A DNA stretch of 64,000 nucleotides from Puniceicoccaceae bacterium (GCA_040830765.1 JBFOMH010000007.1:1-64000); one strand, 5' to 3'; positions 1-30,955 are shown, counted from the stretch's first letter. Numbers and translations are program-made. Notes: generated from the letters alone by a model not told the origin.

Positions 1-3000
1 CGAGGCCAACTGTTCCACCACTGATCTGCAGCTCGACTGCGCTGATGACATCAACGGTACCGAGCAAGTCGTTCGGATCGTTGGTGCCGTTGGTCGCCAG
101 GGCCCAGTCCATGCGCGGGGTGAGTTCAGTGCTGCCATCGGAATCCGTAGCTGAATTCACTTTCAGATCGCCAGAGGCATAGAAGTCCAAACCGTTGACC
201 CCTATTAGCTGAGCAGTGCTCATACTAACATCTAGTCCGAGGTATGTATCCCCGCGGTTGTCTACAACAGGATCATCTACAGCGCCCGTAGCCATGACCA
301 TGTCCATGCTAACACCGTCCACTGCGAAACCGATTGTGCCATCAACAACATCATCCTTGGCAACATTGAGGGAGCCTCCCACACCGGCAAATACATTGGC
401 CGTGCCACTGACTGAGACGTATTCGGCATCGGTCAGGGTAGTTGTCCCGTCGGTCACCGTCGTTGAGCCGATCTTCAGGTCAAGCCCGCTGATGGCGGCG
501 ACAAAGACGCCCGGTCCGAGATCAACAGCCGCATTACCACTGACGCCCAGTTCGAGGCCACTTCCAATCGTGAAGGCCGGAATGATACCATTCGGGTCGT
601 TGGTCTCGTTGGTAGCGGTTGCCCAATCGACACGGACTGAAATGATGTTGCCCGATGTATCCTTGGCCAAGTTGAGCTTGAATGTGCCAGAGGCCCAGAA
701 ATCGAATCCGGTAATGCCCTGCAGGGATGCCTCGGCCAAGCTCGCTTCGAAGCCCAGATAACTGCGTTGGTCACCAGCGGTCACATCGGCAGGCCGGACG
801 AGGGCAAAGGATGCTGTTCCTCCGATGATGCTGAAGCCGATGGCATTCGTCAGGTCCAGAGCATCGTCAGAAATCGTGGTGGCATCATTCGTGGTGATGG
901 AAGCGCCCAATCCACCAAACAGGTTCAGGTTGCTTACAGAGGCCGTCAGGACAGAAGCGTTCTTGAGCGTGCCAGCAACATCCGCCTCAACAGGATCGGA
1001 AAGGGATCCGCCCGAGCCCGGAATGGAGGCATTACCTGTGACAACATCCATCACCGTGCTGGTGATTTCAAACGTGGCGGTCCCGACAACAAAACCGAAC
1101 AGGTCCAAGCTGGCATCTGCCGTGACCTTGGTAATCGGTGTTGAATAATTAAATACAATTGGCGTGGCCCCTGCCATCACGGTGTAGGAGCCATCTGCCC
1201 CACCCGCTCCATCGGCATCAATCAGGGTGAAGTCGACATAGGTGTCATCCGAGGCGTGGCCGTTGTAATCGAGTGTCAGGTCCTCAGCGAGCACGGTCAG
1301 ACCGGTCACGCCAGACAGGGATGCTGAACTGATGGTGCCCTGGACGGCATTCCAGGTTCGCGAGGTTGAACCATGCTCGATGATGACTACACCGAGACTG
1401 GAAATCGTTGTGGTGAATCCGACTTCGCTGTCGGATCCATAATTCGCCCCGACAAATATCGTCCCGCTTTCGGCCCCGATGGTTGTTACCGGCAGATCGC
1501 TCAAGACCTCGGGTGTGGTGCCATCGGTGACGGTGACCGAAGACAAGGTGTCCGTGGAAATATTGAAGTCACCCGACAGGTAGACAAATCCACCGAGATC
1601 AATTTCAAGGTTGGTCAGGCTGGCTCCGGCGGAGAAGCTCGTATTGGAGACCAGACTCAATGGATCCGATCCCACAGCAGCAACAAGTTCGTTGATGGTA
1701 ATGCGGTTGTCCGAGGGGGTTGGATCAGCCAGCTCGAAATTGAGGCTGGCATTAGCGGTGACATCCCCATTGACGATTCCGAAATTCAAGCCATTGGCTC
1801 CTGCTGTTGCGGTAAGCGAACTGAGGGTGAATTCAGCTGCTCCGCCAGCACTGACATCACGAAGGAAGATTGCGTCACCAGCATCGCCCGAAATCAGGTC
1901 GTCCAAATCAATGCCTACCGTAAAGAGCAGATTTCCGCTGGCTGTATAGCTGAAATCGCCGGCAAGGAGACCATTGAGCGCATCGAGACGGAAATCAAGT
2001 GCCTCCGTTCCCGATACGTCGTGGCTCAAATCCACCGTGTAGGTCAATTCAGCTGTGGAGATATCGAAATTAAACCCGAGGTCAGAAATGTCACTTCCAA
2101 GTCCCTCGGCAGTTCGATCGGCAAGGTCCTGGACACTGTTAAAGCTGGCTCCTCCACTTGGATTGGAAGGATCCGAATCCAGACCACCGAGGACACTGTT
2201 GTTAAAGCCGGAAGTCAGGTCAGTGAACGTATCCAGGGCTTGGTCGACGTAAGGAATTTCAACACCGAAGGCGTCTAGATAATCCCGCACCGTCTCTATC
2301 TTCTGCAGAAGCACATCCGGATCGATATTGAGGAACTTCATTAATTGTTCCCCGCCCGTGAAGGTAGGATTGGCCGTTACGGCGACACTGGAAATATCCG
2401 TGATATCAGCCCACTTCATGTCGACTTTGACGGTCCCCAAGTCAAAGGCCTGGGTGGGATCACCAGGGACAAATGGGGAAATCGTGAATGTCCCAGTCAG
2501 GAACAGGTCATTGGTATTGGGATCCCCGTCGGAGGCATTTGTTGGATTGCCGACGAGTGACAAATCAAACAGTCCCAGAGGATCGGTGAAAAAGTCCTGG
2601 ACCCGCAGTTGTGTATCTGAACCACCGCCTGTCGTAATATCCACCTCCAATGCCACGGCACTATCCACAGCAAGGTCGACCTCTGTCAGGGCGACGTTGA
2701 TAAAGCCAAAGCGACCGATGGCTTTCACATCATCCGAGACATCGACGACAATATTGCCCAGGCTGAGTTCAGGACCGGCAGAAGGATCGCCATCGCGGGT
2801 GCGGATGTAGAAGCCGTTTGGATCCACGCCAAACACCATATCCAGTGTCAGGTCTGCACTGACTTCTATGCCACCCGTGATATCAATATCACCAATACCG
2901 ACATCAAAGTCGAATTCCAGATCGGCCTGTCCACTCAAGGTCTTGATGATCTGGACATCCCACTCAAGGTAAGGGGATGGGTCGCCGCTGCCGTCCGTAA

Positions 3001-6000
3001 AGGTGACATTACCGGGCGTGCTATCGAGCCCATCGAGAGCATTGGCAAGATCGGCCCCTGTGCTAATCAAGCCCCCGATGTCAGAAATTCTGAAACTGCC
3101 CGGTCCGGACTCAATCAAGCGCTGGACAAGATTTTCGGTATTGCTGGTCTGGCTGGCCTGATCGATTTCCGGAACGCTCGGGGCGCGGGTCGGATCCCCG
3201 CGTGGAGCCCGTTCCTCGGGAACCGTGCCGCTCATGGCGTTTTCGAGAGAAGAACCAAAGACAGGAACCTTCTCATCCTTGATGCCGAGCAGCTCTCCGA
3301 GCCAGTAAAGCCCGATCTTGATGGAGTTCAAGGGATTGGACCAGCCGAGGAAGGCGGAATTGTCGAGAGTTTCAACATTGTTGTAGAGAAGCAGCTGGCG
3401 GGCGCCGTTCTCATCATAGACCGTGTAGTAGTCGTTCCCATCGATGGTGCCGCTGAATACATCGTCAATATCTTCTCCGAGAAGCACCGCAGAATCGGCT
3501 CCATCGCCACCATCATAAAAGATACCATCAGCAAAGGCTATCGCTCCATTGCTATGATCGAGCGTCAGGGTATCATCACCACCTCTCAGGAGGAATACCA
3601 TGCCCTTAACCCCGGCAACTGAGGAGGTGAAGACAGGAACCGAGGTGCTGAAGTTAAGGTCGAAGACTTTTACCTGGGTTGAATTCTCGGCACTGCGGAT
3701 TACCTTGAAATGGTCGGCCCCGGTTGTTCCCACAAACTGTGGAATAAATTCCCCAATTCCCTGCCGGTTCAGGTTGCTCATGGACCATGCTCCCCGTCCC
3801 ATCAGGGCGGCAAGAAGGATGTCAGGATCGGAAATTTGATTGTCCTTATCGACATCAATATAACGAAGGTCATTCACCGGTGAATTGGGCAGGTTGTCCC
3901 CGAAAGCTACCCACTCTGCGTCGCCGACATCATTGACGTTCTCAGGCTCAACGAGACGATAAACTCCAGCCGACGCACCAATCATCAGGATGTCCCCTGT
4001 GGGATGCGTAATATACTCAATCGTCCTCAGGTCGGTCGCCCGTCCACTGATACGATTCCACTCCGGTTCGGCAGCCGTGATGTCCGCTGTCTTGTAGACA
4101 TGTTTGTTATCAACGGCGTAAACCGTTTTCCAATTGTCCGGATCAACAACAATATCGAGGATTTTGTAGGCAGGATCGATGCTGACGGTCCGCCACTCCT
4201 GGGTGGCATCAACGCGATAGACAATGTCGTCATGGATACTGGCCATGATCAGGTCGGGCTTTTGCACGCCGCCTTCCATCCCACCATAGACCAGGGAGTT
4301 GACTTTCTTGTAGAAGAAGGGGTAGGAACCGTTGGCATTGCGATTCTCTTCGCCCTCGTAGACCCGCTCGACGGTTTCGAAGTAATCGTCAGTGGTGTAG
4401 ATACCAAACATGGCAATCAACAGCTTGCCGTCGACAAACCGGTTGGCAGCTACCGGAATGTGGGTGAAGCCTGTAAAGGCACTGTCCAGGTCATTGGTAA
4501 TGCCACTCAGTCGCACATCGCTTGATGACGATGTCAGGTTCGCCCGTTCACGATCACCAATTCGCGTCCCCGTGTCGTCATAGGTTTCCTTGAACACCCA
4601 ATTGAAATTATTCGACATGGAGAACCGGACAACGCGGTCATCGACGGTATCCGCATTGGTATCAATGGCAACGACCGTCTGCACTGCCCCGTCTCCACCA
4701 TGAATCTGGGTCCAGCCGGAGACCCGTTCATTGTAGTCATCGATTCCGTTCATTCCATCGTCATCGACTCCGTTGCTGGCGGTCAGGCTTTGAACAGAAG
4801 AACCATTGTCCTGTGTGCCGACCAAAATGACCTTGTTGACAGGATCGTAGTCAACCGAACTTGACTCGGTAACGCGAAGGTCGCCAACAATGGAAGTCCA
4901 TTCGCGGGTCGGGCCCGGTAGGTTGAGCGGATTGGTCAAGCGGTAGATCCCACCGTCATCGGCTTCGAGAAGGTTCCCGGCTGTATCAAAAGTAATGAAT
5001 CGGGAATCGGCATGAGGCGTCGTATTATTGACAGTGCTGCCGACGATTTGCTCCCAGGCACTCCCGGTGTAGCGGAAGACCCGGCCACCGCCACCTGACA
5101 ATCCAACTGAGTTATTGGTCCGGCTGGGCTGACGATCCCCACCGACATAGATGACGCTCGAATTGTTTGGATCAACGGCAAGGGAGAAGTGCAGGTCACC
5201 TTGCCCGCCAGGATGGAGTCCGGTCTCGGTCGCTGGACTGCCATCGGTGGAAGTCGGTATGTCGATTTCAAACCAGTTACTGCCGAAATCAGTCGACTTG
5301 AAGATATCATTCAGTCCGGTCCCGTTCTGACCATGGGTGTTGGGACCGACGATGCCGACATAGACCGTACCGTCAGCGGCAGAGACAGCTAGCTTCATGC
5401 GCTTCTTGTCTTCGAAGTAGTTATCGATCCCATCCCCGTCAGAATCCGATCCGGATGCGATGTTAACCGAATCCGGAGCCCCGCTGCTGGTGTTGATGGG
5501 AGACCAGGAGGTGCCTCCGTCATCAGACATAAAGACGCCCTGCTCGGGATTGACTGCGTAAAGCCGTACCGGTCGCACCGGAGCTGAGGTGCTTCCCGGA
5601 TCAATTGCCAGGTCCGTGTAGTGCCCTGCCGGGAGACCGATGCCGGCTGAACCGGAAATCTTGGTCAAGGTATAGCTGGTCAGGGTCGTAGTCGCTGCCA
5701 GGTTGTCGATTTCAATTTCCAGCCGGAAAACGCCACCACGGTCATCAACGACATCATTATTGTCCTGGTCGAGATCCAGTGTGGAGATGAAAATGACCTG
5801 TTTGCCGGCGTTGGTCAGTTTCGTGGTCAGGACTCGGGTAATCTTCAGATTGAGGAGCTCCGTCCGCCCCAGTTCCATCCACGAGTCACCCCCGTCTGTT
5901 GTCAGGAGCAATCCCCGGGGGGGCGTTCCGGTGTAGGATGAACTGGTGCGGCCCGTTCCCGCGATCAGGACAAGCTCATCGTTGGATGTCATTGCCGTGA

Positions 6001-7927
6001 CTTCGGCACCCGTGCTGTCCAGGGGACTCAATGAGAGGGTGCTGATTCCGAGGCTGCTGAAATCGTCAGTCAGGTTTTCCCAATTTGTGCCATCTCCGCG
6101 CCAGACACCGCCCCCGACGGTTCCCACATAAATGAGGTTCGCATCGAACGGATGCTGGGCAATGGCGTTGATGGCTCCCACCACCGGGCTGTAGAGGCTG
6201 GTGCTGCTAACCCCGGCAGGACCTTCTTCAGTCCAGGTCGGTATTCCGTCCTGGAGGAAGGGGAAACCGTTTTTCACATAATAGGCACTCCCTGTGAAGG
6301 CAGAGAAGTCAGCCGTTGTCGTGCTTTCTCCCCCGATAAATTCAATCCGACCGATATTGGTGATGTCGATGGATAGGGTACCGACGGTCACCAGTGAATC
6401 GGTTGCCGTGATATCGGCGTTACGGACAATCCGAAAAGTGTTGTTCCCGGTACCGCCATCTACGGTCCCCGAAACTTCTGCATCAACATTGAAATTGAAG
6501 AAGTCATTGGCGAGGCCTCCCGTCAGGTTTTCAATTTCCGTGAAAGAGAGATCAACATAGCCATCAATTTTCAGGACTCCGGTGCCCTCTTCGGTCATCA
6601 CCCATTCGGCGTCGGCAGGAATGGCTAATTCAAGTTCGTCGCCGGAACTCGGTACTGAGGAGAAAATGGAAGTGATGTCATTGTAGGTAATGTCATCCGC
6701 CGGATCATCCGCACCGGTCACGGTAACATCCGGGATGTTATTGCCGTTTGCATTGATGACGAGGAAGGTCAGGGGTCCCGTGTCGAGAATACCGTCAAGG
6801 ATTCCAGCCACCGCTGCGCTGAGGTTTGCTGTAACAGGGTCGGAGGAGGTGGCATTGATGTTTCCACTCAGGAAGTGGCGGACGCCCGCTGTCAGGGTTT
6901 CCTCCATCACCGCAAGACCAGAATCATGCCCGAGACCAAGTAGGTGACCTACCTCATGCACGGTGGCCGTGAGGAGGTCCATCTTCCCGTAGGCGTCACT
7001 TGAGGTATCGGCCATCCGGTACCCGTCAAGGTTAAGGATTCCGAACTCGGAGGACTCGCCCGGGGTGGTGTCAACAAACCAGCCATGACCGGCGGCCGTC
7101 GGGTCGATAAGGACCATCCCGTCCCGGGCTTCCCCGAGGATGCCGTCCGGGAGATCGGTGACGGTTGCGGTAAGGTTGTCGAGGACATCCGTCAGGCCGT
7201 TCGCAGCTGCGTAGGCCGACCAGGCCGAGATGGCTGCCGGGAGGATGCTGTCGAGGTCTTGCTGGGTCAGTGGTTCAACCTCTGCACCCGCATCGGCCGG
7301 ACCACTGGCATAAAGAAAATCGCCTGCCCCAAAATGGGTCTCAGGCGACTCGAATAGTGAGAAATTGGCGTAATCCGGTGTGGACACGTTGAAGCCGGAA
7401 CCGATGCTAAATTCGGACCCGGAAATGATGAATTCGGCTGTATCCCGCTGTTCAAGCAGGTCACCGCCCATCGGGGGTCCGTTTGCGGCATGCAGGGTGG
7501 TTACTAATTCCTGCGAAAGTGGGTCGTAACGGTCGACCAGTGCAGTGACCTGAAGGAGGCCTGCTGAGCTGTCAATTGACGGCCCGTGGAGACTGTAAAT
7601 AAGCGAAAATTCCTGTGCGGAAACGGCTGTTTCCTCGTTCCCCTCGACCTCAATTCCAGAACTGGTGACGGCCTCCATGGGGTCGGCTTCGGCCACCGAT
7701 TCCTGTCCCTGGAGGGCGGAATCCTCAACCCCGAAAAGGCCATCTTCGGCCACTTCTGCGGCCGCCGGGGAGGCGTCCATCTCGACAAAAATAGCATCAT
7801 TTTCCTGGTGCTGATGGAGGAGAGCCTCGGCTGCTTTGGCACCAACAATACCGTCGCCAGAGAGAAGGAGACGGGGCTCCAGACTCTCCAGTTCAAACTG
7901 GTTTTTACGTGGTGGGTGCGAGCTCAA
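1..7927 (-). CDS. Giant LEPR-XLL protein, at least 2642 aa, 3' end beyond the window. Leader, metzincin-like domain, BNR/Asp-box beta-propeller, then beta-rich stalk repeats
   Basis: Not in the ORF track. Manual translation from TTG at 7927 (in-frame TAA just upstream) gives MSSHPPRKNQFELESLEPRLLLSGDG. The same frame gives sensible protein at every spot checked: HEVGHLLGLGH at 6958-6926, Asp-box motifs at 5270-5914, and open reading at positions 2-160. The long + strand ORFs lie in the antisense shadow frame. Not every codon was checked for stops. Confidence 0.88.
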   Translation of the reverse strand, partial: MSSHPPRKNQFELESLEPRLLLSGDGIVGAKAAEALLHQHQENDAIFVEMDASPAAAEVAEDGLFGVEDSALQGQESVAEADPMEAVTSSGIEVEGNEETAVSAQEFSLIYSLHGPSIDSSAGLLQVTALVDRYDPLSQELVTTLHAANGPPMGGDLLEQRDTAEFIISGSEFSIGSGFNVSTPDYANFSLFESPETHFGAGDFLYASGPADAGAEVEPLTQQDLDSILPAAISAWSAYAAANGLTDVLDNLTATVTDLPDGILGEARDGMVLIDPTAAGHGWFVDTTPGESSEFGILNLDGYRMADTSSDAYGKMDLLTATVHEVGHLLGLGHDSGLAVMEETLTAGVRHFLSGNINATSSDPVTANLSAAVAGILDGILDTGPLTFLVINANGNNIPDVTVTGADDPADDITYNDITSIFSSVPSSGDELELAIPADAEWVMTEEGTGVLKIDGYVDLSFTEIENLTGGLANDFFNFNVDAEVSGTVDGGTGNNTFRIVRNADITATDSLVTVGTLSIDITNIGRIEFIGGESTTTADFSAFTGSAYYVKNGFPFLQDGIPTWTEEGPAGVSSTSLYSPVVGAINAIAQHPFDANLIYVGTVGGGVWRGDGTNWENLTDDFSSLGISTLSLSPLDSTGAEVTAMTSNDELVLIAGTGRTSSSYTGTPPRGLLLTTDGGDSWMELGRTELLNLKITRVLTTKLTNAGKQVIFISTLDLDQDNNDVVDDRGGVFRLEIEIDNLAATTTLTSYTLTKISGSAGIGLPAGHYTDLAIDPGSTSAPVRPVRLYAVNPEQGVFMSDDGGTSWSPINTSSGAPDSVNIASGSDSDGDGIDNYFEDKKRMKLAVSAADGTVYVGIVGPNTHGQNGTGLNDIFKSTDFGSNWFEIDIPTSTDGSPATETGLHPGGQGDLHFSLAVDPNNSSVIYVGGDRQPSRTNNSVGLSGGGGRVFRYTGSAWEQIVGSTVNNTTPHADSRFITFDTAGNLLEADDGGIYRLTNPLNLPGPTREWTSIVGDLRVTESSSVDYDPVNKVILVGTQDNGSSVQSLTASNGVDDDGMNGIDDYNERVSGWTQIHGGDGAVQTVVAIDTNADTVDDRVVRFSMSNNFNWVFKETYDDTGTRIGDRERANLTSSSSDVRLSGITNDLDSAFTGFTHIPVAANRFVDGKLLIAMFGIYTTDDYFETVERVYEGEENRNANGSYPFFYKKVNSLVYGGMEGGVQKPDLIMASIHDDIVYRVDATQEWRTVSIDPAYKILDIVVDPDNWKTVYAVDNKHVYKTADITAAEPEWNRISGRATDLRTIEYITHPTGDILMIGASAGVYRLVEPENVNDVGDAEWVAFGDNLPNSPVNDLRYIDVDKDNQISDPDILLAALMGRGAWSMSNLNRQGIGEFIPQFVGTTGADHFKVIRSAENSTQVKVFDLNFSTSVPVFTSSVAGVKGMVFLLRGGDDTLTLDHSNGAIAFADGIFYDGGDGADSAVLLGEDIDDVFSGTIDGNDYYTVYDENGARQLLLYNNVETLDNSAFLGWSNPLNSIKIGLYWLGELLGIKDEKVPVFGSSLENAMSGTVPEERAPRGDPTRAPSVPEIDQASQTSNTENLVQRLIESGPGSFRISDIGGLISTGADLANALDGLDSTPGNVTFTDGSGDPSPYLEWDVQIIKTLSGQADLEFDFDVGIGDIDITGGIEVSADLTLDMVFGVDPNGFYIRTRDGDPSAGPELSLGNIVVDVSDDVKAIGRFGFINVALTEVDLAVDSAVALEVDITTGGGSDTQLRVQDFFTDPLGLFDLSLVGNPTNASDGDPNTNDLFLTGTFTISPFVPGDPTQAFDLGTVKVDMKWADITDISSVAVTANPTFTGGEQLMKFLNIDPDVLLQKIETVRDYLDAFGVEIPYVDQALDTFTDLTSGFNNSVLGGLDSDPSNPSGGASFNSVQDLADRTAEGLGSDISDLGFNFDISTAELTYTVDLSHDVSGTEALDFRLDALNGLLAGDFSYTASGNLLFTVGIDLDDLISGDAGDAIFLRDVSAGGAAEFTLSSLTATAGANGLNFGIVNGDVTANASLNFELADPTPSDNRITINELVAAVGSDPLSLVSNTSFSAGASLTNLEIDLGGFVYLSGDFNISTDTLSSVTVTDGTTPEVLSDLPVTTIGAESGTIFVGANYGSDSEVGFTTTISSLGVVIIEHGSTSRTWNAVQGTISSASLSGVTGLTVLAEDLTLDYNGHASDDTYVDFTLIDADGAGGADGSYTVMAGATPIVFNYSTPITKVTADASLDLFGFVVGTATFEITSTVMDVVTGNASIPGSGGSLSDPVEADVAGTLKNASVLTASVSNLNLFGGLGASITTNDATTISDDALDLTNAIGFSIIGGTASFALVRPADVTAGDQRSYLGFEASLAEASLQGITGFDFWASGTFKLNLAKDTSGNIISVRVDWATATNETNDPNGIIPAFTIGSGLELGVSGNAAVDLGPGVFVAAISGLDLKIGSTTVTDGTTTLTDAEYVSVSGTANVFAGVGGSLNVAKDDVVDGTIGFAVDGVSMDMVMATGAVDDPVVDNRGDTYLGLDVSMSTAQLIGVNGLDFYASGDLKVNSATDSDGSTELTPRMDWALATNGTNDPNDLLGTVDVISAVELQISGGTVGL

Positions 7928-7977
7928 GAGAGGGGAAATGCAGCGAGATTAGTAGCTGGTATAACCTACCGGCCTAC

Positions 7978-7992
7978 TAGGGGTATCCCCTA
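7978..7992. promoter_or_regulatory. Inverted repeat TAGGGG-TAT-CCCCTA, candidate operator upstream of the first giant gene
   Basis: 6-bp perfect arms about 50 bp upstream of the 7927 start, in an AT-rich intergenic region. A related imperfect site TAGAGAATCTCCTA lies at 8038-8051. Confidence 0.35.
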
Positions 7993-8222
7993 TTTTCGAT
8001 ATGAGGTCAATCCAATAGGAAATGCCACCCAATCAATTAGAGAATCTCCTACCATGTAGCGCCAGCAGAAGTATACCTAATGGATATTCTTCCGTTTTCG
8101 TGAAGATCAGACTTCCAGTTTTCACAAATAAGAACAAATTTTATGTAAATATAAATCGTTTCAAACGAATGGAATCCGGAATTCCAGACCCTGGAATGAA
8201 CCGGGAAAGCCCTATTGAAATG

Positions 8223-11200
8223 CTAGTATAGGGAGTACAGATTATCCGCATCGACTGTGTCCGAAACCGGATTCAGGGGCTTGAACTCCACGAGCGACAT
8301 TACGGAATAATCACGGTTGATGAAGTTCAGCGGAGGGGCAAATGAAGTGACGGCTGAGGACAGTTGCGGGGGCCAGAAATTCCCTACCACAACAGGCTGT
8401 GGATCGGTGGTCTGGAGCTCAACGGTGTGGGCGGAAATGGTGTAGAATTCAGCGGGATGATGGATCGCGGGCTGGACATTGGAATCGCTGGAATGGGATT
8501 CCGAATCCGGCGCTACGAGATCATCTAGAACCGTAACAGGTTGTGAAACACTTTCATCGATAGGTGCGGGGGATGCCTCGGAGGCGTAGGCAAAATCATC
8601 CGTCTGGAAGGTCACTTCATCAAAGGCGACCTGGCCATGATTGGCAAGAATACCGAAGCTGCCATCCGTCACCAGCGCATTAAAGGCATGGCCCAGAATG
8701 AGCTGTTCATTCCACATCACACTGACCGTACTGCCCTTCAAAGTGACCTCAATATCCTGGGCACCCTTTCGCAAATCCCGATCGGCAAAGGCGGCATCAA
8801 CGAAGAATCCCTTGGCGGTACGGTGGCCGATCAGCACCTCACCGGAATCCGAGGAGACAACTACGAACTTGTAGTCCTCCAGCCCGTATTGGTCGAAGAC
8901 AAACCCACCCTCACCGTTGGCCGTTAAGGTTGCTGCCAGACGGATCAGGGAAGCCGGGGAGACGTCCAGCTGGATAAGGTCGATGGCGGCAACGTCGCCA
9001 CCGAGGGAGGCTGTCACGAAGCCGTTTTCGGTCACCCATGAACCACTAATTGGTTCAGCAAACAATCCGGATGAAACCGCCTCGAAGGTTTCCGTGAGGG
9101 TGAAGGTAACAGGCGGCCGGAGGCGCTGGACAATGACATTATCAATCATCGCCTTGGAGTTGTTGGCACCCAGACCGACCATGCCGTCCTTCAGCCCATG
9201 CGCGATCCCAAAGGCATCAATACGGAGTTCAAAGACATGGGAAAGGGAAACCTTGTTATCCACGGTGAGGGTTACGGTGGACCCGTTGAGCGCAAGGAAG
9301 ACATTATAATTAGTTCCGGCCTTGAGGGAACCGGGATAGACCGCCTGGACATCGACAATCCATTCAGTTTCCGTACGATGGCCTATTTCCAGCTTGCTGT
9401 TGGAGACGTTGATACCGGCAAACTTGAAATCTGTATCACTTTGATAATCAAAGACAATGTAGGCGTTGCTCTTGTAGCCCTTGATGGGCTTCACCGGGTT
9501 GAGCGAGGCCAGCATTTCAAAGTAGTTGGGGATGTATTCATCCACATGATAGACGCTCAAGGCATCCCCTCCCCTGAATTCAGGCTCGACCAGATAGGCG
9601 CCTTTCTCGACAGACCAGACTCCACTGTCGGCAAAGAATCCGTCGGATGAACCATCATTGAATCCGGCTGAGCGGAGGACGTCGCGCGGCCCGCCGGGGA
9701 TATTGCCAGCCTGCGGATCCGCCGGGGCCCCTGTCTGGTCCTGCCAGGCAAAGTCCTTTTGCAGGACCATTCCCAGCTCACCATGAGGCTCGCCGTTGCG
9801 GGACGGATTAGGATTATTTTTGGTCGGCTCAGGAATAATAGCTCCAATGGCATCGACATAGCGGGTCGGATCGGCTCCATCAGCGGCAGACAAGGCATAG
9901 AGGAATTCCGGCAGGAAGGGCTGCAGGGTGCGGCTGACGGAGGCCTGACCAAACGGTGCATAGGGCACGAGATAGCTGTTGTACTCCCCTACCCAGTCGA
10001 TGAGGCGGTCTCCGCCGGTATTGCCAATGAGGACATCACGCCCGGCCCCGCCATAGGCACGGTCCTCGTAGGTGGGATGGGTATCCGGTACCGTATTCAC
10101 CTTGGTGCCGTCATCATTGATATCGTGCTTGTCATCGGCGTTCAAGAGGTCATTGCCCCAACCGCCGTAGATGTTGTCACGACCGGTTCCACCGACAATC
10201 CAGTCGTTTCCGTTATCCCCGAAGATGGCGTCCTTGCCGTCGTCATAGACCTGCGGATAGGACTCGACCTGCTGGCCGGTGGGCTTTGGTACTTCACCTG
10301 CCGGCCGGGTCACGCCAAGGGAGGCAGCGGACTCATCAAAGTTGAGGAGGAACTCGACTCCGCCCCCGTCGTCGAGCTTGTAAAGCTCACCAGTCGCCGG
10401 ATCGAGGAGTATCTTGCGACGTGGATCGTATTCATCATAGAGGAAGAACTCGCCGGCCCGGAAGCGGTTGTTCAAGTGCTGCCCATCCTGGTCAACGGGA
10501 TTGAAAGCAAGGACGTTGCCGGCCTCCAGCACAGCCAGGCTAACCGTATCACCCGGATTGATGGGATTCGGCAGCTGGAATACGTTGTAGCCGAGGTTCA
10601 GGACGCCGTCGGGGTTTCCATCAAGATCAAAGGTCGGAACATAGGCATCCGGAAGGGCCCCGGCACCGGACATGGCATCGTCGCCCGAACCACCGTGCAG
10701 GAAGTCACTGCCAAGGCCACCGAAGATGATGTCGTCAGCGTAAGGAGTATTGGTATCGTCGTCGTGGAATTCGTCGTCCATGGCCATCCAGCCGTATTCA
10801 TAGCTAAACGGAACAAGGTCAGCGGTCTTCTTGAGCGCGCCTTCAAGATGAATTCTGGCAATCTGGATTTCACCCGGTGTGTAAATCAATTCTCCAAGCG
10901 CATCACCGTTGGAGTAGCGCGGGCTGGCATCCCTGTCGAGCAGGCCCGCGATCCCGTAAAGCGGTTCACCTTCGACACTGTTGCGGCTGGTCAGGAGGAG
11001 CCCATCGTCGCCAACAACTCCATCCTGTCCAGTGCCCCCGGCGATCCAATCGTTACCGTAGCCACCGACAATGTCATCGTCCTGTCCTTCACCATAGATG
11101 GCATCGCTGCCAGTCATTCCAAAGATATAGTCATCGCCAGCTTCACCATGGATGATGTCGGCAAGGCCGTTGTCAGCCACACCGTCAATAATAGCTGCAC

Positions 11201-14200
11201 CAGATGGCGTGTAATCCTGACCAAGGGTAGCGTAGTCGGCACCCCCAAGGGTGTAATCCAACTGTTCCATAGCACGCGGGATGATGCGGATTTCGCCACG
11301 GTCCTCGCTGCCTTCATCGGTTGTGAAGCTTTCGTCGTAATTATAAGTGCGGAATACATCGGGTGCCTGCGGGTCCGCGTTGGTTTCAACGATCCGGTAG
11401 ACGTTGGCATTATCGCCCATGATGAAGTCGGCATCATTGGCGTGCCCGGTCGGATCGGTCAGGATGACCTGTTCATCGTAGGTGGTCGCGATATCGTCAT
11501 ACCATGTCGCGTCACCGATATCGTTGTAATCGATGTCAACGCCTGCGCCGCCAAAGATGATGTCGGATCCATCAGGACGCATTTGCTCCGCCGTCAGGGT
11601 GAGCAAGGCGGCATTGACGCTATCGAGGCCGAAGAGGGCCGAACTGCCGCCAATCATGTCATCCTGGCCAAGGCCGCCGTACATGAGGTCGTTCCCTCCA
11701 TTGCCTTCCATGTAGTCGTCACCATCGGTCACCGCCTCGGGAATGTTGAAGTAAAGGGTCTCATCGGTGTCGGGAGTCTTGGTCGTGTCATCGACGACTT
11801 CCAGCTCGTGGCTGACGAACGGATCCCCTTCCTCATCGACTCCCACGTTCTGTATCGACTCAATCGCTCCGTCGCCCTGCATCAGGTCATCTCCGAGCTG
11901 TCCGTACATGATGTCGGCGCCCGGACCACCCGCCATGACGTCCTGACCATAGCGGCCGTTGGCGATTGCCTCGATGCCGTCATCGTGGTCGACCAGTTGG
12001 ACATCCCGGCCGGTGGACTGGTCTGGATCCAGCTGCTTGTCGCTGGTGATATTGGTTGTAATGGTATCCGGCCCGGTGGTGTAGAGCTGGTCACCAGTCA
12101 GGTCACGGAAGCGCGGGTTGGCGACATCTCCCCGGCGCCAGATAATGGTGTTGTCACCGGCCATGCTGTCATTGCCGGTTCCGCCATCCATGAGGTCATT
12201 CATCTTCAAGTCGCCATTGGAAGGATTCAGGCTCACGGTCACTTCAGGGATACCAGCGTTGGTTTCGCCCAATTCATCGTAGCCGCCGCCAATTCCCTGA
12301 TCGCCGGATACATTGTGGCCGCCGGTCATATCATCGTCATCACTACCTCCCCACATCCGGTCGTCTCCCTGTTGGCCGAGCATGATGTCATCCCCTTCTT
12401 CACCATGCATCACATCCCCTTCGCCTGCGTCGGCTTCTGCCGTATGAATGGCGAAGTAATTGCGGGCGTGGAAGACGTGGCCATCAACGAGTGCGGGAAC
12501 GAGTGCGGTGTCGGCGGGATCTTCGTACCAGCGGGCATACTGTGGATAGAGCCGGCCGTGGTCCCCGAACATGACGTCATTGTTCAGGGTCGCCACCGCA
12601 AAGAAGTCCACTTCGTCGGCGTCGTCTCCGTAAATGGTATCGAGGTCGGTTCCGCCAAAGATTAAGTCGCTTCCCTCATCGCCATAAATCCAATCGCGCC
12701 CGCCATTTCTGGGCTGCTCGGTGGTAACGAGATCCAAGGTGGTCAGGTCGGTGTCTGCCTCTGCTGGATCAAACTTGGCAAACAACTCTGGATTATTGGC
12801 ATCAATATCGATCCCGTAGATTTCATCGAGGCGCCCGGTTGAGAGCCATTCCCAGGAGCCGTTGTCCCCGAGGATGATGTCGTCGCCGTCATCAGCGGTA
12901 GTGGAGGCTGTTGGTGATGCTCGGTCACCATAGAGATAATCCCCTTCAACCCCGCCGGCAATGATGTCGCCACCGGCATTGCCGGAAATCGTATCGACGC
13001 CACCCGTATCGAGCGGATCATCGTCATCCTCGTCCGTGGTGACGATGGTCTTTACGGCCGCATCAAGGACCACTTTCAGGTCACCTCCGGAGGCGCTACC
13101 GACAGCAACCAGGAAGATGTCCGCATTGTCACCGATGAGGATATCGTCCATATCGGCCGAAGCAGCCGAGGCGTCATCGTCATCCCCGTAAATCGTGTCA
13201 TCCCCCGTTCCACCGATGGCGACATCCTCGCCCTTGTTGCCAGACATATCATCCGTGCCGCCCAAGCCATCCTCGAAGGATTGAATCAGGTCGAGGGTGG
13301 TCCGGTCCGTATCCGCTGCATAGGTGAAGTCCAAAAGGCCGTTGTCGCCGAGCATGATGTCATCGGCATCATCGGCAATTGTGGTGGAATCCGGTACCAC
13401 CCGATCCCCGTACATGAAGTCGGTTCCGCCATTGTTGACCCCACCCAGCATTATGTCCGCCTTGGCGTTGCCGGACATGGTGTCCGGACCACCGATTGCT
13501 TCGACCTCTGACAGCTCATCAAAGTCGGGATCGCCCTCGTCGATGTCGTCGATTGTGGCGATCAGGTCAACGGTCGTGGGATACTCGGAAGCCGCCACCT
13601 GGACATAAAGGCGTCCAAAATTGGTGATATCGTTGAGATAGGCGTCGGGGCTGTCGAAATCATAGGAGGGATCGTTGATGAGTTCGACCTTCCCGTTGTC
13701 ACCCAGCATGATGTCCTCGCCATCGAGCGATCCGTGCGAGGCCGTAGCATCATCCCCATACATGAGGTCCCCGGCTGTTCCGCCAATGAGGACGTCATCT
13801 CCCTGGTCCCCGGAAATCCAGTCTTCCCCACCGAGCCCGTCACGATAAGAGCGGATGAGATCAATCGTGTTCAGGTCGGGGATACCGGCACCAAGAGCCT
13901 CATCCAGCGAGAAGTCGATTTCCCCGTTATCACCAAGGATGATGTCCTGGCCGTCGCTGCCGAAGAGGACATCGACGCTGCCATTGACGCCACCAAAGAT
14001 GACATCGTTGTCGAGCTCGCCCTCTACATACTCGTGACCGCCGGTTACATCGTCTTCATCTGTGGTCCGGACCATTTCAAGGTGGCCGAAATTCGGCTCG
14101 TGAGTATCATCGGCGAAGAGCAATTCGCCGTTATCGCCAACAATGATATCGTTGTCACTGGCCTCTGGGTCCGTGGGACCGCGGAAGGCACCAAGAGCAT

Positions 14201-17200
14201 CCTCGAAGTTTGGTTCGGTAATATCAACAACCTTGCCATGGCCACCGAAGAGGTAATCGCTGCCACGTCCGCCCAGGATATAGTCCTGTCCGTTGTCCCC
14301 ATAAATGATGTCATCAAAGGGATGGCCATCGACATTGGCATCCACATCAACAGCCCCGATGATGGTCTCGATGGACCGGAAGCGGCGCTCGTTGAAGGTA
14401 ACCTTGCCGCCGTCCCCGATTATAACGTCCTCACTGATCGGCGTTACGTCCTCGGGAGCTGGTGTGTTGGCTACCGGGAGTCGCGGATCAACATCGCCGC
14501 CAAACAAGTCGTTGCCCCCGCCACCGAGCATGATGTCGTCGCCAGCATCGCCGGAGAGGATGTCGTCGCCGTCGCCATTGACCACATCGGTAATAATCAG
14601 GTCGAGGGTGCGAATGTCCTGGTCATGGAATTGTCCAACCAAAAGAGCGGCATTGCCGATTCCGATGGATACGACCGTCGGATCCAAGTCGGTGGCAAGC
14701 TTGGCAATCAATCCATCATCCCCGAACATGATATCATTGCTGCTCCCGCCGACCACGAGGTCGTCATCAACACCACCAAACAGGAGGTCAGGTTCGGTCT
14801 GCCCGAAGACCTGGTCGTCACCGGCATCGCCGAACATGACATCGGCACCGGTATCGCCCTTCATGACGTCATTGTCGCCATCCCCGTGCATGAAGTCGTT
14901 GCCGGAACCACCCGCCATGACATCGTCACCGTCGTTGCCGTAGAGAACATCGGCCTGGTCGCCGCCATAAATTGAATCGTTATTGGCCCCGCCGCTGATT
15001 TTGTCGAATCCCTTGCCGCCAAGGAGGATGTCGTCGCCGCCATTCCCCTCGATGGTATCATCGCCAGTACCCCCGAGGACAAGGTCGTTACCTCCATCCC
15101 CATGAATCTCGTCATTGCCACCCAGACCCAGGTTGGCTGCGCGAATCCTGTCCAGGACAGCATCCTCAACGGCGTCAATTCCAGCGCTGATAATGGCCGG
15201 TTCAACGTAGCTGCTGATGGGGACAGGCACATAGGCGGCAGGAAGCAAGCCGGCGACATCCACATGTTCGCCACTCATCGTGTAGGCGAAGCGTCCACCA
15301 TCCCCGAGGATGAGATCGATACCATCGCCACCGCGCAGGATATCACTTCCACCGGCACCGATGACGACGTCATCCCCTTTGCCGCCGTCCATATTATCGG
15401 CCCCGTCCGTTTCCTGGATACGGCTACTGATATAGGTGGTCGCAAAGCGCCCGTCGTCACCAAAGAGGATGTCGTATCCGCCATTGCCCCAGACCGTGTC
15501 GTTCCCTTCGTTGCCATAGATTACATCGTTAGCGGGACCGCCCTTCAGGGTGTCGTTGCCGAGACCACCGATGATGATGAAGCCTTCGGTGTCACTTGAA
15601 GCTGTCGTTCCATCAAAGACAATGGTGTCGTCGCCCACCCCACCAAACACATAACCGGTGATCTGGCTTCCGCCGTCACTGGTATCGGCGTCGAAATTCT
15701 TGAAAGTGATGGTGTCGTTGCCTTCCCCTCCGTAGGCGATGATTTCATGGACTCCCTCATATTCCTGTCCGGAGGTAACGCCCAGGTTGGAAGAGGAGAC
15801 TTTGACTTTCCCGTCACTCACATAGGTCACTGTGAAGTCCTCATTCCCATCGGAAGTATCACCATTGAGGCGGTCCTGGGCATTCGGTCCCATATTGAGG
15901 TAGAGCACACCGCCCTCTTCGGTTCCCAGGCGGGGCAAGCGTTCAAAATCAACCCCAAAGTCAAGAAGCGTGATCTCCGGAGTGATCGGGAATTCCTCCT
16001 CAATGCCAAGTAACGAGACCTCAAGGAAGGCAAAGAGTTCAAACGTCAGCTTACCGCCAACGTCGAAGGCGCCCAGGAGGCCATCCATCTCGATATTTCC
16101 GTAAATCTCACTGATGTGAACATGGCCGTCCGCCACCGAATCATTCCAATCAAAGGTAATGAGCGCATTAACGCCACCACCGACACCGCCACGGGCGATG
16201 ATCAGGTTCAGTTCCGCTGCTCCCACGAGGCCAAACTGGAAGATGATTTCCGGATCATCCGACGTGTCCGTTTCACCGTCGCTGAAGAAGAAGCCGTCGA
16301 GAATCAACGCCCCGTTACGGAAATCCGTCTGCGCCCAGCGCCGGATTCCATAGGTGTCGAATCCCACGGAATGCAAATCAAGGGTGAAGCTGAAATTGAT
16401 CTCAATCGACACGGCCAGCGGTCCCCACACGGGGAAGACCTGAAGGTATTCAAAGCCCACGCTGAGCGGCGGGAGTTCGTATTCGACAATCGTGGCATCC
16501 TGGTTGACGAACATCTTTATTATTTCGAGGGCACCGAGGCTGGGATCAAAGATCGGCATCGTCAGGCCATCGACCAGATTGCCCGTTCCCAGGTCGGTCA
16601 GGAAGGAGGAACCGGAGATGAGGGTACTGAATTGGGAGTCGATATTCAGCCCGGGAGTGGTCAACAGGAGTGCCTCCGCGCCAAGTGGATCCCCGGTGAG
16701 CGGATCGGGATTGAAGTAATTGCTCCCGGGTGTGCCAATATCAAACAGGGTCAGATCCCCGAGGATAAGCGTCGGGAGGCTGCCGAGTTGCCCGATTTCT
16801 CCAATCAGCTTAAGGATATCGGCAACGGCCTCGATAAAGCGCGTATCGACATCGTCACTCAACAGGCCCGCCAGGTCAATCAGGGTAAAGGGCTCGCCCG
16901 CAAGGTCGGAAAGGATGGGAATCTCGGCCGTCAGGATATCGATCACCGGCATGAAAGGTTCAATAAACTCGGCTATCTTCTGCAGAGGCTGGCCCAGAGC
17001 TTCCTGAACCGCGTAGAGGGCGTCGAACTCCATGCCATCGAGCTTGATCAACTGGATACCTGGTGTGACGGCATCACCCTCCAGGTCGTCGACATCGGTT
17101 GTCGGCAAGGCCCAGTCGAAGATGAAGTCACTTGTCATGACCGGTAGAATCGAAACCGTCTTGGTGATCAAGTGGAGGTTGGCGGCATAAGTGGCGCCAT

Positions 17201-20200
17201 CGAGCCGGTTACCGGTAAGGGTGGCTTCCGGATTGAGGCTGCCGATATCGGCAAAGCCGAGGCGAGCTTCCCCGGTAGTACCGTTCTTGACATCAACAGC
17301 AAAGACAAGGTCCGCCCCACTATTCCCGCCAGGATCTGTCACATCAAGCTTGAGGAATCCGAGTTCCCCGTCGAAGGGCCCTGTTCCGGGCAGCTCGATC
17401 TTTAAATCAAGGTCGACATCATCGGCATCCGAGACGTCGATGTAGGCCCCATTGCCGAAGTCCACCCCAAAGGTGATCTCGATGCTCCAGTCAAAGGTGA
17501 CCGTCAGGGGCGCTTCCATGTCAAAGAGCAGGTGGTCCGGCCCGATGTCAAAGTCGTCAAAGGTGAGGATTTGCGCCTGGGTGTCTGTGCGTCCCACCGT
17601 GAAAGTCCACTCGCGGTAGCGGTCCTCCGGAGGAACCGCCGGGCCAAGGTTGTTTGTCTGGACAGGCCCCGAAATGAGATAGGCGGAAAGCGGCCCGGTG
17701 AAGGCGGCTGTGATGAGGGACTGGATGATTGTGTCAGGATCGGGATCCACCGCGTTCTCAACCCCGTTCTTGATCGTCCGGGTAAGGGCCCGGCGGAAGT
17801 CCTCGATAAAGAGGATATCGGCCATTTGGTCGCCGATGAAGGGGAGATCAATACCAAGCACTTCCCCGGCCAGCTCGTCACTCAGGAGTTCCAGGTAGAG
17901 GTCAAGGGTGTCAATCGCCAGGAGGATGTTTTCAAAGGGATCATAGGGCACCACTTCTTCGGTAATGTCATCCACGATATCCCCGTAATCCGGCTCCGTG
18001 ACGGTCAGGCCAGCAATGCCCCCACTGGCCGCATACTCACCAATAAAGTCGTTCGGTCCTTCACCGCCATAGAACATGGGCAGGACGATTTCGATATCAT
18101 CGGCAAGGATTAACGGGGCAATCCAGTCACCGTAGGCGACTGTATCGAGAAGTTGGCGACCCGAGCCACCGAAATCAAGACCCGGCAGAATGAAGACAAA
18201 ACTGATCAAAACATCCCCGTCCTTGATGAACACCGACAAGGGGCCGACGTTGGAGCGGAAGACCAGACCGAGACCTTTCTGACCTCCGGGAATGTCATAT
18301 TCCTGGCCCTCTCCTATAACATCGATTCCGCCACCTATGTAAGAGGAATCGAGGAGATAAATCTGCGAGGGTGAATTCAGATCGGTAGCGGTCTCCAGAT
18401 GGACGGCCAGCGCTCCATAGACTTCCAGCACGCCGGCACTGGTAAGGTTGGGAGAGGTGGGACCTGTGACAATGTCCAGACCCAGCTTGGTGCTGACCTC
18501 ATTGAACAGGTTCATGCTCAGCAGCAATTCCGTGCTCCCGGTATCGTAATCCAGCTTGACGTAGTTGACAGGACCGCCACCGCCGTAGGGATCAACGCCG
18601 TCCGGAAGGCCGAAGGCTCCCCGCAAGGCCTGGGGAAGGTCCTGCAGGCGCAGCGCAGGCAGACCCAATTCAAATCCCTCGGGACCGATGGCAAACTCGG
18701 CTGCTGCGAGGACTTCCTCAATATTGGCGGCACCCCGTTCGAACGCACCCGTCAGGTCGAGCAACTGCCCGACGCTCCGGTTGATGGCCGGCAGAAGTTT
18801 GTTCAATTCCGTGAAACTGGTATTCACGTCAAGGACCACATTAAGGAGGCCGTTGACCAGCCGCCGCACGCTGTCGTAATCGTAATCATCGAGGAAGCGG
18901 AGGTCGCCCAGGGAATTCAAGACCAAGCCCCCGGTGGAGGGTTCCGTCGGGACATAAGGATTCCCGAAATCAACCAGGACAAAGGGGACGGTATAGGGTG
19001 CATCATCGAGGGCCTTGAAGTCACTGTCGAAGGCAAGGTCATCAAACCCCTCCTGGACCTGCACGACGAGGTTGAAGCTACCAAAGTTACCCTCGGGTTC
19101 CGGTATCCCGTTGACCTGGGCAACCGTTCCCGTGTCAGGTGCCACAATGACGTCATCATCCGAGAAGGTCCCTGTGACGTTGGACAGGAGCAGGTATCCG
19201 GTCGATCCGGAAGCGACAACCGTGGCAATGACGGCGATATCACCGGGATCCGCACCAATCAAAACATCTCCGGGGGTAAAATCGGTCGGTCCGAGCTCAT
19301 TGTCATAATCCAGCTTAAGCAATTTCTCAACTGTGGCCGGATAGAGGGTGAAGTCCTGCTTCATCAACTCTTCCAGGGTGATCTGGTTCTTGGGTCCGCC
19401 GGGATCGGCGAGGTCGGCCGAAATCTCAGCGGTCAAGCTCCCGTCGACATGAACATCCACCCCGACAATGCCATATAGTCCCGAACCGGGAACACCGGTC
19501 CCCGGGTTGACGGTAGCCATGGAGAGCCCGAGTTGCATTTCCGCATCCCTTACGAAGAAACGGCCATCCAGGCTGGTCAGGCCGATGTTACCGCCCTCGA
19601 TCACGTTGGGATTCCCCACAAGCTCGGTTTCCGCAGGTGGCGGAAGCAAATCCGGCTCAGTCAGGAACAAGCCAAGGCCCAGCAGGGCTTCGGATCCGTT
19701 GATGGTTGAGATCTGGAAGGCTTCAGTCCCCCCCGTGATATCCTTCAAGCGCAGCCCCGAGTGGAGGAAGTTGTAGGCCGCCTCGAAGCTGAACGGAGCA
19801 ATGGTGTTCAGGTAGCCGATAAGGTCCGCCATTGTCGGTCCCGGAACATCGTCGATGGATACCAGGTGTTCGACGCCATCCCGGGTCTGGATGATAAAGT
19901 CCGCCTTGATGGCCACATCGCTGACCTCGGCAGGATATACAACCGGGTAGCCCAATTGTTGCTGGGAATACTCATTATTGACTTTGATGGTGAAGTCGGT
20001 GGATGGATCCAAGGCCGCAATGACAATGCGGGAGGTATCGTAGAGACTTCCGTCAGGCGGTGTGGTGCTGTCGTAATCAGCAACGAGGACGGCATCAAGG
20101 CCGGCATCGGCAATGGCATCGTTCACTTGATTGACCAAGTCCTCAATCGACCAGTACTTCTGGAAACCGGGAAGCACTATCTCCACCTCAGGACCGGCGT

Positions 20201-30199: not shown

Positions 30200-30955
30200 T
30201 TAATCCTCCAGGCTGAGTTTGAGGAAGCCGCCCTCACCGGGACGCACGGCTCCACCGGGATTGGCAAAGATGGCCTTTATCCGCAGCAGGCCGCTGGCGG
30301 AGTCAACAACCGGGGAGATGAAGACAATCTCCCCGTTCATGCTGGAATTACCTGATGCTTGACCCAATTCGGAGATAAATCCCACCGTGTCTCCCATCGA
30401 CAATCGGCTGGCCAGAGCGGGATCGATATTGGCCACACAGTAGAATTGGCGTGTATCGACGATACGCATCAGGATTTGCGGAGGCTCGCAATATTCACCC
30501 ACCTCTATTGGCAGGCGGGTAACCGTTCCCGTAAACGGTGCCCGGAGTCGCTTCTTTTCCAGCGAGTCCTTGGCCAGGTCCAGTTCGATGACCGAGATCT
30601 GGTAATCACTGCGGGCCTCATCAACCTCCTCCATGGAAATCGAACTGGTTTTCTCCAGCAGCATTTCCGATCGCTCGAGGGTGGCCTTGAGGTTGGCTAC
30701 GAGCACTTCCCGTCGCTTGATATCCAACTCCTCGGCGATGGAGTCCAGCTCGACAATGACTGTTCCCTTCTCCACGAAACTGCCTTCACCGTGCCGGATG
30801 GCACTGACAGTGCCCGGTAGAGTGGATGTCATTTCCACGTCCGCTACCGCTTCTGTCAGGCAGCGGATCGTTTTTGCTTCAAGCGTGCTAACGAATGTGG
30901 CTGCCGTCAAAACGACGAGGGAGAGGCTTCTTTTCAGGTTCCGTTGAGATATCAT
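30200..30955 (-). CDS. Efflux RND/HlyD-type periplasmic adaptor subunit
   Basis: Signal-like N-terminus, then GTVSAIRHGEGSFVEKG, coiled coil, LRAPFTGTV, ISPVVDSASG, VRPG. Confidence 0.88.
   Translation of the reverse strand: MISQRNLKRSLSLVVLTAATFVSTLEAKTIRCLTEAVADVEMTSTLPGTVSAIRHGEGSFVEKGTVIVELDSIAEELDIKRREVLVANLKATLERSEMLLEKTSSISMEEVDEARSDYQISVIELDLAKDSLEKKRLRAPFTGTVTRLPIEVGEYCEPPQILMRIVDTRQFYCVANIDPALASRLSMGDTVGFISELGQASGNSSMNGEIVFISPVVDSASGLLRIKAIFANPGGAVRPGEGGFLKLSLED

Follow-up and report, generated by a model that had tools for sequence, protein, structure and literature searches.

What is served by a short, proline-ending sequence that closes the leaders of giant bacterial proteins? 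The question is raised by a 64,000-nucleotide stretch of DNA from a Puniceicoccaceae bacterium (GCA_040830765.1 JBFOMH010000007.1:1-64000; the whole stretch is hereafter called the window), in which two giant proteins of the LEPR-XLL type, giants A and B, are encoded on the minus strand. LEPR-XLL giants, which rank with the largest proteins of bacteria, are exported by an uncharacterized route. The sequence in question, block 3, is a real and strongly conserved element closing giant-protein leaders in Verrucomicrobia; it might act as a recognition helix at the junction between leader and cargo, while a pause of the ribosome at this element is possible, though less likely.

A reading of the window made from sequence only had pointed out three blocks common to the N-termini of both giants, and all three were indeed found where that reading had placed them:

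2..7927, minus strand: giant A, more than 2642 residues, with a TTG start and continuing beyond the window edge; its leader (7472-7927) is followed by a metalloprotease-like HExxH region
8223..24035, minus strand: giant B, 5270 residues, with RTX (repeats-in-toxin) repeats; its leader is 23613-24035
7838..7897, minus strand: LEPR-XLL box (block 1) of giant A (NF012209), 28.8 bits against a cut-off of 17
23940..23999, minus strand: LEPR-XLL box (block 1) of giant B (NF012209), 28.4 bits against a cut-off of 17
7712..7741, minus strand: block 2 of giant A, GLFGVEDSAL, residues 63-72; F and D are invariant among the six leaders of the genome
23811..23843, minus strand: block 2 of giant B, GIFDNVEDEAL, residues 65-75; the same F and D are invariant among the six leaders
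7472..7525, minus strand: block 3 of giant A, residues 135-152, DPLSQELVTTLHAANGPP; E 1.2e-9 to model A2 (see below), with a capped amphipathic helix pattern closed by N-G-P-P
23613..23666, minus strand: block 3 of giant B, residues 124-141, ARWPSELVTTLHAGNGPP; E 1.2e-8 to model A2, with a helix predicted by AlphaFold2 (AF2) at residues 126-134 at low confidence

Block 1 (LESLEPRLLLSGDG in giant A and LEALEPRLLLSADG in giant B) identifies both proteins as members of the LEPR-XLL family (NF012209, model LEPR-8K): both pass the cut-off of 17 bits, are very large, and carry the box at the extreme N-terminus, where it begins at residues 11-13. In a separate scan of the genome with the LEPR model, the two giants scored 32.6 and 33.3 bits. 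The NF012209 model covers only the 24-residue LEPR box, however, and not blocks 2 and 3, for which no match was found in Pfam or NCBIfam; nor did we find a published account of block 2 or block 3 in the literature searched on the motif, on LEPR proteins, and on giant/SecA/HlyD/TolC/M50 systems.

When the first 400 residues of the two giants were compared by BLASTP, a single alignment was obtained (residues 12-152 of giant A and 12-141 of giant B; 34% identity, E 5e-10), which stops exactly at the Pro-Pro of block 3 and beyond which the two proteins do not align. In the 13-residue core of block 3, namely ELVTTLHAANGPP in giant A (residues 140-152, nucleotides 7510-7472) and ELVTTLHAGNGPP in giant B (residues 129-141, nucleotides 23651-23613), 12 of the 13 residues are identical while only 3 of the 13 codons and 27 of the 39 bases are, just as the sequence-only reading had noted for the protein and, in general terms, for the codons. 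Its proposal that selection acts on the peptide thus holds, because the protein is conserved while the codons differ and because the motif is common to a large family. The layout that it described, a targeting box followed by an acidic spacer and a Pro-ending motif, was borne out as well. The extent of block 3 needed correction: the 13-residue core was properly delimited, but the conserved block is longer, about 18 residues, and runs from a putative capping box through the helix to Pro-Pro.

The genome (3.99 Mb in 40 contigs, 96.9% complete) encodes six LEPR-XLL giants, whose open frames range from 2649 to 15,026 residues, and all three blocks are present in all six. In three of them, block 3 reads ELVTTLHA[AG]NGPP and in one NLLLTLKAGQGPP, while two paralogues on contigs C8 and C19 have ...LQPRAPP and ...LMPRAPP.

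Beyond this genome, a profile search with its six leaders against 1.84 billion representatives gave 179 proteins at E <= 1e-3, and the motif is present in most of the matches that are long enough to reach the site of block 3. From 285 unique pooled LEPR N-termini, which mix profile-found and LEPR-anchored sequences, we drew 121 unique instances of about 18 residues with the consensus [DNS][SPT][MLI]xxxLVx[TS]LxAA[NQ][GAPS]PP; counts based on such a regular expression miss variants, seven of which were listed. With the last Pro taken as position 0, the 121 instances are occupied as follows:

-17, D, N or S; -16, S, P or T; -15, M, L or I; -12, Q or E
-11, L (102); -10, V or T (116); -8, T or S (115); -7, L (119)
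-5, A (91); -4, A (91); -3, N (109) or Q (12)
-2, G (85), A (27), P (7) or S (2)
-1 and 0, P (121 each)

Twelve positions of block 3 hold 3-4.3 bits of information, despite spacers that are unalignable. The conservation ends abruptly: the information content is 4.3 bits at the last Pro and 1.3 bits at +1, where small residues are favoured (A 44, S 15, G 12 and V 12 of 121), and it is below 1 bit thereafter. On a helix, the aliphatic or small residues at -15, -11, -8, -7 and -4 would form one face, and the variable polar positions -13, -12, -9 and -6 the opposite one. Judged by general rules of helix capping, furthermore, S/T at -16 together with D/E at -13 resembles an N-capping box, and Asn-Gly or Asn-Pro before Pro resembles a C-cap. 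AF2 (52-row alignment) predicts the giant B leader to be disordered, with a mean predicted local distance difference test score of 58, and the short helix at residues 126-134, again of low confidence, coincides with block 3.

The only instance seen in which the second Pro is lost is the LEPR leader L073 (G150:C65), where the helix is followed by N-S-P-G and not by N-x-P-P. An ARAPP in P0014, a metagenomic fragment of 254 residues, lies about 113 residues after the LEPR box and was considered as a replacement of block 3; it was rejected, since the same leader has a canonical ...EILHAANGPP about 35 residues further on, and ARAPP is thus an extra there. An RGPP in L035 was also rejected as block 3; it sits within a folded domain.

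The motif is tied to LEPR leaders and to one place in them. The last Pro follows the LEPR box at a distance of 113 to 252 residues, with a median of 144 and quartiles of 133 and 156 (n = 87); in the metagenome set the range is 117 to 250 residues, with a median of 149 and quartiles of 137 and 178 (n = 35). The spacers between the boxes are acidic and cannot be aligned (median pairwise identity, 21%), and the cargo after block 3 differs among proteins and includes metalloprotease-like, lipase-like and 'GNSPG' beta-repeat regions. We then searched 301 genomes of the phylum of the window with model A2, a 22-column model of block 3. It matched in 15 of the 301 genomes, and all of the 22 matches at E <= 4.6e-4 lie inside LEPR-type open reading frames (ORFs), a few hundred bases 3' of the LEPR box; of three weaker matches, two are likely noise and the third is a degenerate variant within a LEPR ORF. 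Metagenome contigs were scanned in a LEPR-blind manner as well, with a degenerate DNA pattern for LVxTLxAANGPP in which every third codon base was left free. On 43 contigs, 42 in-frame matches were found, 4 of which are cut by contig ends while 38 are evaluable (at least 100 upstream residues). In 36 of these 38, the ORF also has a LEPR box (in one case an LEPK variant), which precedes the match by 117-250 residues; the other two (L178 and L192) represent the C-terminus of a single sensor histidine kinase, ...TFVMTLPAANGPP, and look like a chance match. Block 3 therefore occurs almost only in LEPR leaders, at the junction of leader and cargo.

As to its distribution, block 3 was found by regular expression in 12 of the 38 confirmed LEPR loci of a genome collection, and by eye in one more (L039). 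All 13 belong to Verrucomicrobiota-type lineages, the closest being an Oceanipulchritudo metagenome-assembled genome (MAG), and no block 3 was found in Proteobacteria, Planctomycetota or Pyrinomonadaceae among these 38 loci. In other phyla, the relatives of the C8 cargo domain follow the LEPR box after only about 20-40 residues, so that the spacer with block 3 looks like a lineage-specific extension. Block 3 is, in short, the third and last box of an extended LEPR-XLL leader, found only in Verrucomicrobiota-type sequences.

What might read such a box is suggested by the genes next to the giants. Five genes of a putative export cassette lie upstream of them, and the cassette and both giants make up one same-strand array:

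24193..26223, minus strand: shortened SecA-like ATPase, 676 residues, present in addition to the housekeeping SecA of contig C18
26175..28331, minus strand: fusion of peptidase M50 with an HlyD adaptor, 718 residues; HExxH at residue 211, a cytoplasmic N-domain of about 145 residues, and transmembrane-like segments between about 150 and 450
28335..30197, minus strand: GAF-HlyD adaptor, 620 residues, by family match
30200..30955, minus strand: third, short HlyD-type adaptor, 251 residues, encoded between TolC and GAF-HlyD; the first 68 bases of its ORF are shared with the end of the TolC ORF
30888..32759, minus strand: TolC-family channel of the outer membrane, 623 residues, by family match

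A locus with the same genes, namely a SecA_DEAD protein, M50-HlyD, GAF-HlyD, HlyD and OEP/TolC, was described by Kamneva, Poudel and Ward in 2015, with neither cargo nor leader in the part of that paper available to us (PMC4452313). The LEPR giants and the cassette are linked by co-occurrence and synteny. In a sample of 300 genomes of the phylum, a full-length orthologue of M50-HlyD (E <= 3.6e-129) is present in 21 of 22 genomes with LEPR proteins and in 3 of 278 without; among 20 fetched loci, the M50-HlyD and SecA-like genes are adjacent in all 20, accompanied by GAF-HlyD in 19 and TolC in 16. The M50 domain is nearest to metalloproteases that process the leaders of ribosomally synthesized and post-translationally modified peptides (daptide_HExxH, E 8e-50, below the cut-off of that family). 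The N-domain of M50-HlyD has no Pfam match at E <= 5 beyond noise, and no family match to an ATP-binding cassette (ABC) transporter or to C39 was found among the five cassette genes. Just upstream of the TolC gene, at 32900-33445 on the minus strand, there is also a 181-residue ORF with one hydrophobic segment, a CAQCH motif (CxxCH, haem-c type) and no Pfam match.

Our preferred reading, to which we give a probability of roughly 0.4, is that block 3 is a self-capped amphipathic recognition helix marking the leader-cargo junction. The leader has three parts: a basic N-terminus with the LEPRLLLS box, about 100 residues of an acidic, disordered spacer holding a small "[LI]F..ED" box, and block 3, on this reading a short, stand-alone amphipathic helix, with the variable cargo directly after it. 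The helix would be capped at its N-terminus by [ST]xx[DE], would present the hydrophobic face of -15, -11, -8, -7 and -4, and would be capped at its C-terminus by Asn-Gly and then Pro-Pro. Pre-formed in this way, block 3 may dock on a component of the cassette (the SecA-like ATPase, M50-HlyD, GAF-HlyD or TolC) or on a lineage-specific helper, and docking would mark the end of the leader for the positioning or processing of the giant cargo; Pro-Pro would set where the helix ends and may cause a brief translation pause as well. The clean amphipathic, capped helix formed by the conserved residues points to a protein partner, and the recognition-helix reading is further favoured by the position at the junction, the exclusive tie to LEPR proteins and the protease in the operon. 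As described above, the motif with its helix-type pattern has a fixed place, is restricted to LEPR leaders and is optional among them; its binding, its partner and any cleavage are what we infer. A predicted complex of M50-HlyD 1-455 (21-row alignment), giant B 105-161 (52-row alignment) and zinc, made with no controls, gave a score of 0.00 and a mark of 0.32, which speaks neither for nor against this reading.

Double-glycine leaders may be compared: they contain an amphipathic leader helix with conserved hydrophobic positions and a small-residue pair at the boundary, which is cut by a protease built into the ABC exporter. Block 3 is similar to these leaders, whose exporters are peptidase-containing ABC transporters, in that an amphipathic helix with conserved hydrophobic positions lies at the leader-cargo boundary and in that the exporter bears a protease. 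The differences are considerable, nonetheless: N-[GAPS]-P-P stands in place of the GG, GA or GS at -2/-1 and M50 in place of C39, there is no ABC transporter, the leader has about 150 residues, and the motif is optional.

Several observations weigh against a recognition helix. The motif-blind, LEPR-anchored sample of the phylum, which comprised 73 loci (4 unreadable) with 69 unique leaders and is unbiased where the pooled set is not, had block 3 in 30 of the 69 leaders by a strict regular expression and lacked it in 39, three of which are variants by eye (QGPP with a shifted helix, NSPG, and PGAPP). Block 3 is a family-wide element, of which 121 unique instances exist, and at the same time an optional one. 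Leaders with and without block 3 can precede the same type of cargo, moreover, in genomes that have the cassette. Model A2 matched in 0 of 301 genomes in the phylum of a Phycisphaerales MAG and in 0 of 301 in that of a gammaproteobacterial MAG, even though LEPR proteins occur in both phyla. Given its absence from 39 of 69 leaders and from the searches of these two phyla, block 3 is no general requirement of the export route; the cassette functions in its absence as well, and the surface offered by any partner would need to be specific to the lineage. The genome of the window contains only one cassette, which must hence serve leaders ending in NGPP, QGPP and PRAPP alike. In some leaders of the RAPP/RGPP type, furthermore, the helix pattern is weak while x-P-P is kept, which fits a role at the level of the ribosome better. 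Helix capping would not require that both prolines be strictly invariant, and a rare-codon bias at the first Pro, described below, is not predicted by a purely protein-level role. A recognition helix and a cis-acting pause do not exclude each other, however.

The alternative that survives best is, indeed, such a pause: ribosomes would pause or arrest in cis about 145 codons into an ORF of 5,000-15,000 codons, which we regard as possible but somewhat unlikely. Pro-Pro would be placed in the P and A sites, LVxTLxAA[NQ]x would lie in the upper exit tunnel, and both the LEPR box and the spacer would have emerged from the ribosome by then; the stall would last until a SecA-like machine engages and pulls the leader, so that export starts before the cargo folds. 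The sequence-only reading had likened the leader to the arrest peptides SecM, ApdA and ApdP. As far as layout goes, and with a gene for a SecA-like ATPase nearby, the comparison is apt: SecM, ApdA, ApdP and ApcA likewise have an N-terminal targeting element, a spacer of 100-150 residues and a conserved stretch ending in x-small-Pro-Pro (PMC12992588 and PMC10951233), and in them as in block 3 the conservation stops at the last Pro, here the would-be A-site Pro of a Pro-Pro kept in 121 of 121 instances. The Sec signal of the arrest peptides has its counterpart in the LEPR box (median spacing 144, minimum 113), an analogous signal and not the same one. According to PMC12992588, RAPP and RGPP are versatile arrest cores resistant to elongation factor P (EF-P), are the most avoided tetrapeptides of bacterial proteomes, and cluster near the C-terminus of 100-200-residue proteins with localization signals; RxPP stall motifs admit G, A, S or P as x, for which a random-library screen is cited there, and HGPP is another reported staller (PMC10951233). 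Position -2 of block 3 is limited to G, A, P and S, the residues that are allowed as x in RxPP, and the distance from LEPR to Pro-Pro, with its floor and narrow spread, is on the 100-200-residue scale of the signal-bearing RAPP/RGPP proteins (PMC12992588).

Known arrest cores are in fact found at this place. The two paralogues outside the window carry PRAPP where block 3 would stand (G000:C8:17332-17343 and G000:C19:150563-150574, G000 being the present genome), PRAPP is kept in a relative that is less than 50% identical, and another LEPR protein, a distant relative, has ARGPP 115 residues after the LEPR box. Both tetrapeptides are depleted in this genome, in a crude set of 2879 ORFs: RAPP was observed 5 times against 16.5 expected, with two of the five at the block 3 place of giants, and RGPP 3 times against 16.3.

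Codon usage also speaks for a pause to some extent. A robust test, based on the commonest codon of the ORF and on G or C at the third codon position (GC3), showed that the first Pro is encoded by the commonest Pro codon of the ORF in 21 of 74 leaders, where 35.7 would be expected (p 6.6e-4), with a GC3 of 37 against 52.7 expected (p 1.5e-4), p-values which are optimistic because the leader sequences are related. The bias has the same direction in both data sets (genomes, p 0.005; metagenomes, p 0.07), and no such bias was seen in the controls, namely other Pro-Pro dipeptides (n = 40) and single leader prolines (n = 522). Only this first Pro codon survives the robust test, nonetheless, and position +4 deviates as much, with no explanation: in 76 leaders, the codon there is locally rare and A/T-ending (commonest codon in 24 of 76 against 38.1 expected, p 0.0012), while its residue is not conserved. 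First z-scores of -3 to -4.7 at -11, -10, -2, -1 and 0 had been inflated by small backgrounds and pseudocounts and, except at the first Pro, were not upheld by the robust test; rare codons at -11/-10 as a site for a trailing ribosome were thus dropped.

The arguments against a pause are nevertheless serious. The known arrest peptides have the core R-[AG]-P-[PG] or R-A-G-P. The Arg of RAP is not replaceable by any of the 19 other residues in ApcA, ApdA or ApdP, nor in SecM (PMC12992588), whereas all of the 121 canonical instances of block 3 have Asn (109) or Gln (12) in its place and, among the giants of this genome, only the C8 and C19 paralogues have RAPP there; on this point the likeness to SecM, ApdA and ApdP fails. 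Block 3, with its G/A-P-P, resembles EF-P-dependent XPPX motifs, but XPPX pauses are normally short with EF-P, which relieves them, and GPP stalls less severely than PPP (PMC13602936); the genome encodes EF-P, and its ValS keeps PPP. Known arrest peptides are small ORFs upstream of a regulated gene, with the motif near the C-terminus, but block 3 is located at residues 129-152 within giant ORFs downstream of the gene for the SecA-like ATPase. Sensing in the tunnel does not need the pattern of an amphipathic, capped helix; not every LEPR leader of the phylum carries block 3, and none was found in the searches of the two others. On balance, the pause reading stays alive, since Pro-Pro is invariant, -2 is confined to G/A/P/S, variants of the RAPP/RGPP type exist, in part with a weak helix, and the Pro codon is biased. 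In its fullest form, to which we would commit ourselves only tentatively, LVxTLxAA[NQ][GAPS]PP would be a new class of cis arrest module inside giant-ORF leaders, holding the ribosome until a SecA-like motor captures the LEPR leader and so making megadalton export through a TolC-linked duct co-translational; leaders of the RAPP/RGPP type would be the same device with a known strong core, and Asn/Gln-x-Pro-Pro with its upstream helix a weaker, context-dependent one.

With respect to Pro-Pro in general, a LEPR giant of 15,024 residues outside the window (G000:C5:130171-175242, minus strand) has one at residue 140, in block 3, and the next only at residue 10,941; it contains 8 in all, against 13.8 expected from its own composition.

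It is improbable, in our view, that block 3 belongs to a ruler or tether, in which the LEPR box would be bound at the inner membrane, the acidic spacer of about 100 residues would run through the adaptor-TolC duct, and block 3 would act at the far end as a stopper or handle that keeps the giant on the cell surface. The minimum spacing of 113 residues with its narrow spread and the disordered, acidic, unalignable spacers (21% median identity) would suit this arrangement, and about 90 extended residues would, by our estimate, span the TolC-plus-adaptor duct. Long spacers without block 3 occur in the same phylum, however, and the TolC-type proteins vary between genomes while block 3 is constant.

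LapA is a giant RTX-type adhesin with a TolC-linked exporter and an N-terminal retention module that holds the LapG (TAAG) site. The giants of the window are reminiscent of it in their RTX-type, adhesin-like cargo, their TolC-linked exporter and an N-terminal element with Ala-Ala, but here the export signal is N-terminal, the Ala-Ala pair varies, and a search of the genome for a Peptidase_C93 gene gave none. Cleavage of the LapG type was rejected on the last two counts, Peptidase_C93 (PF06035) having been sought in a genome that is 96.9% complete.

Cleavage of another kind, in which M50 or another protease cuts in or next to AANGPP, or Asn/Gln cyclises to cut the chain, is also distinctly unlikely. 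Block 3 lies at the junction, its conservation ends at Pro-Pro as that of double-glycine leaders ends at GG, the operon encodes the M50 protease, and small residues are favoured at +1, all of which speak for cleavage. Against it, the LEPR box is the only box common to all LEPR proteins, and the cargo of many relatives begins 20-40 residues after that box; a universal M50 site would more likely be situated beside the LEPR box, since this alone is universal. Pro-Pro beside the scissile bond is unfavourable for most proteases, Ala-Ala is not invariant here either (91 of 121 at each of -5 and -4), and leaders of the RAPP type have no Asn/Gln at -3. Finally, a passive helix stop or linker with no specific reader, although compatible with an otherwise disordered leader and an optional motif, is highly improbable in view of twelve positions at 3-4.3 bits amid unalignable spacers with codons freely exchanged.

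With block 3, 18 residues that are sharply delimited and open to mutation, the LEPR export route gains a handle whose invariant Pro-Pro falls exactly where the leader ends. As a mark for docking or processing, which is the reading we prefer, it would show the start of the mature protein and could serve as bait for whatever component recognizes the leader. As a pause site, it would provide the first substrate-built arrest module coupling translation to export, and arrest cores would be widened beyond Arg-x-Pro-Pro. Either way, leader/cargo boundaries can be annotated in hundreds of metagenomic giant genes.

Two further observations concern the surroundings of the giants. Outside the window, directly upstream of a LEPR giant and on the same strand, there is a cysteine-free open frame of 18,661 residues, cut by the contig end (G000:C19:151240-207222, minus strand). 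Within the window, 295 bases (7928-8222) lie between giant B, at its stop codon, and giant A, at its TTG start, and this gap contains a terminator-like hairpin (8191-8172, minus strand), so that giants A and B may be separate transcription units.

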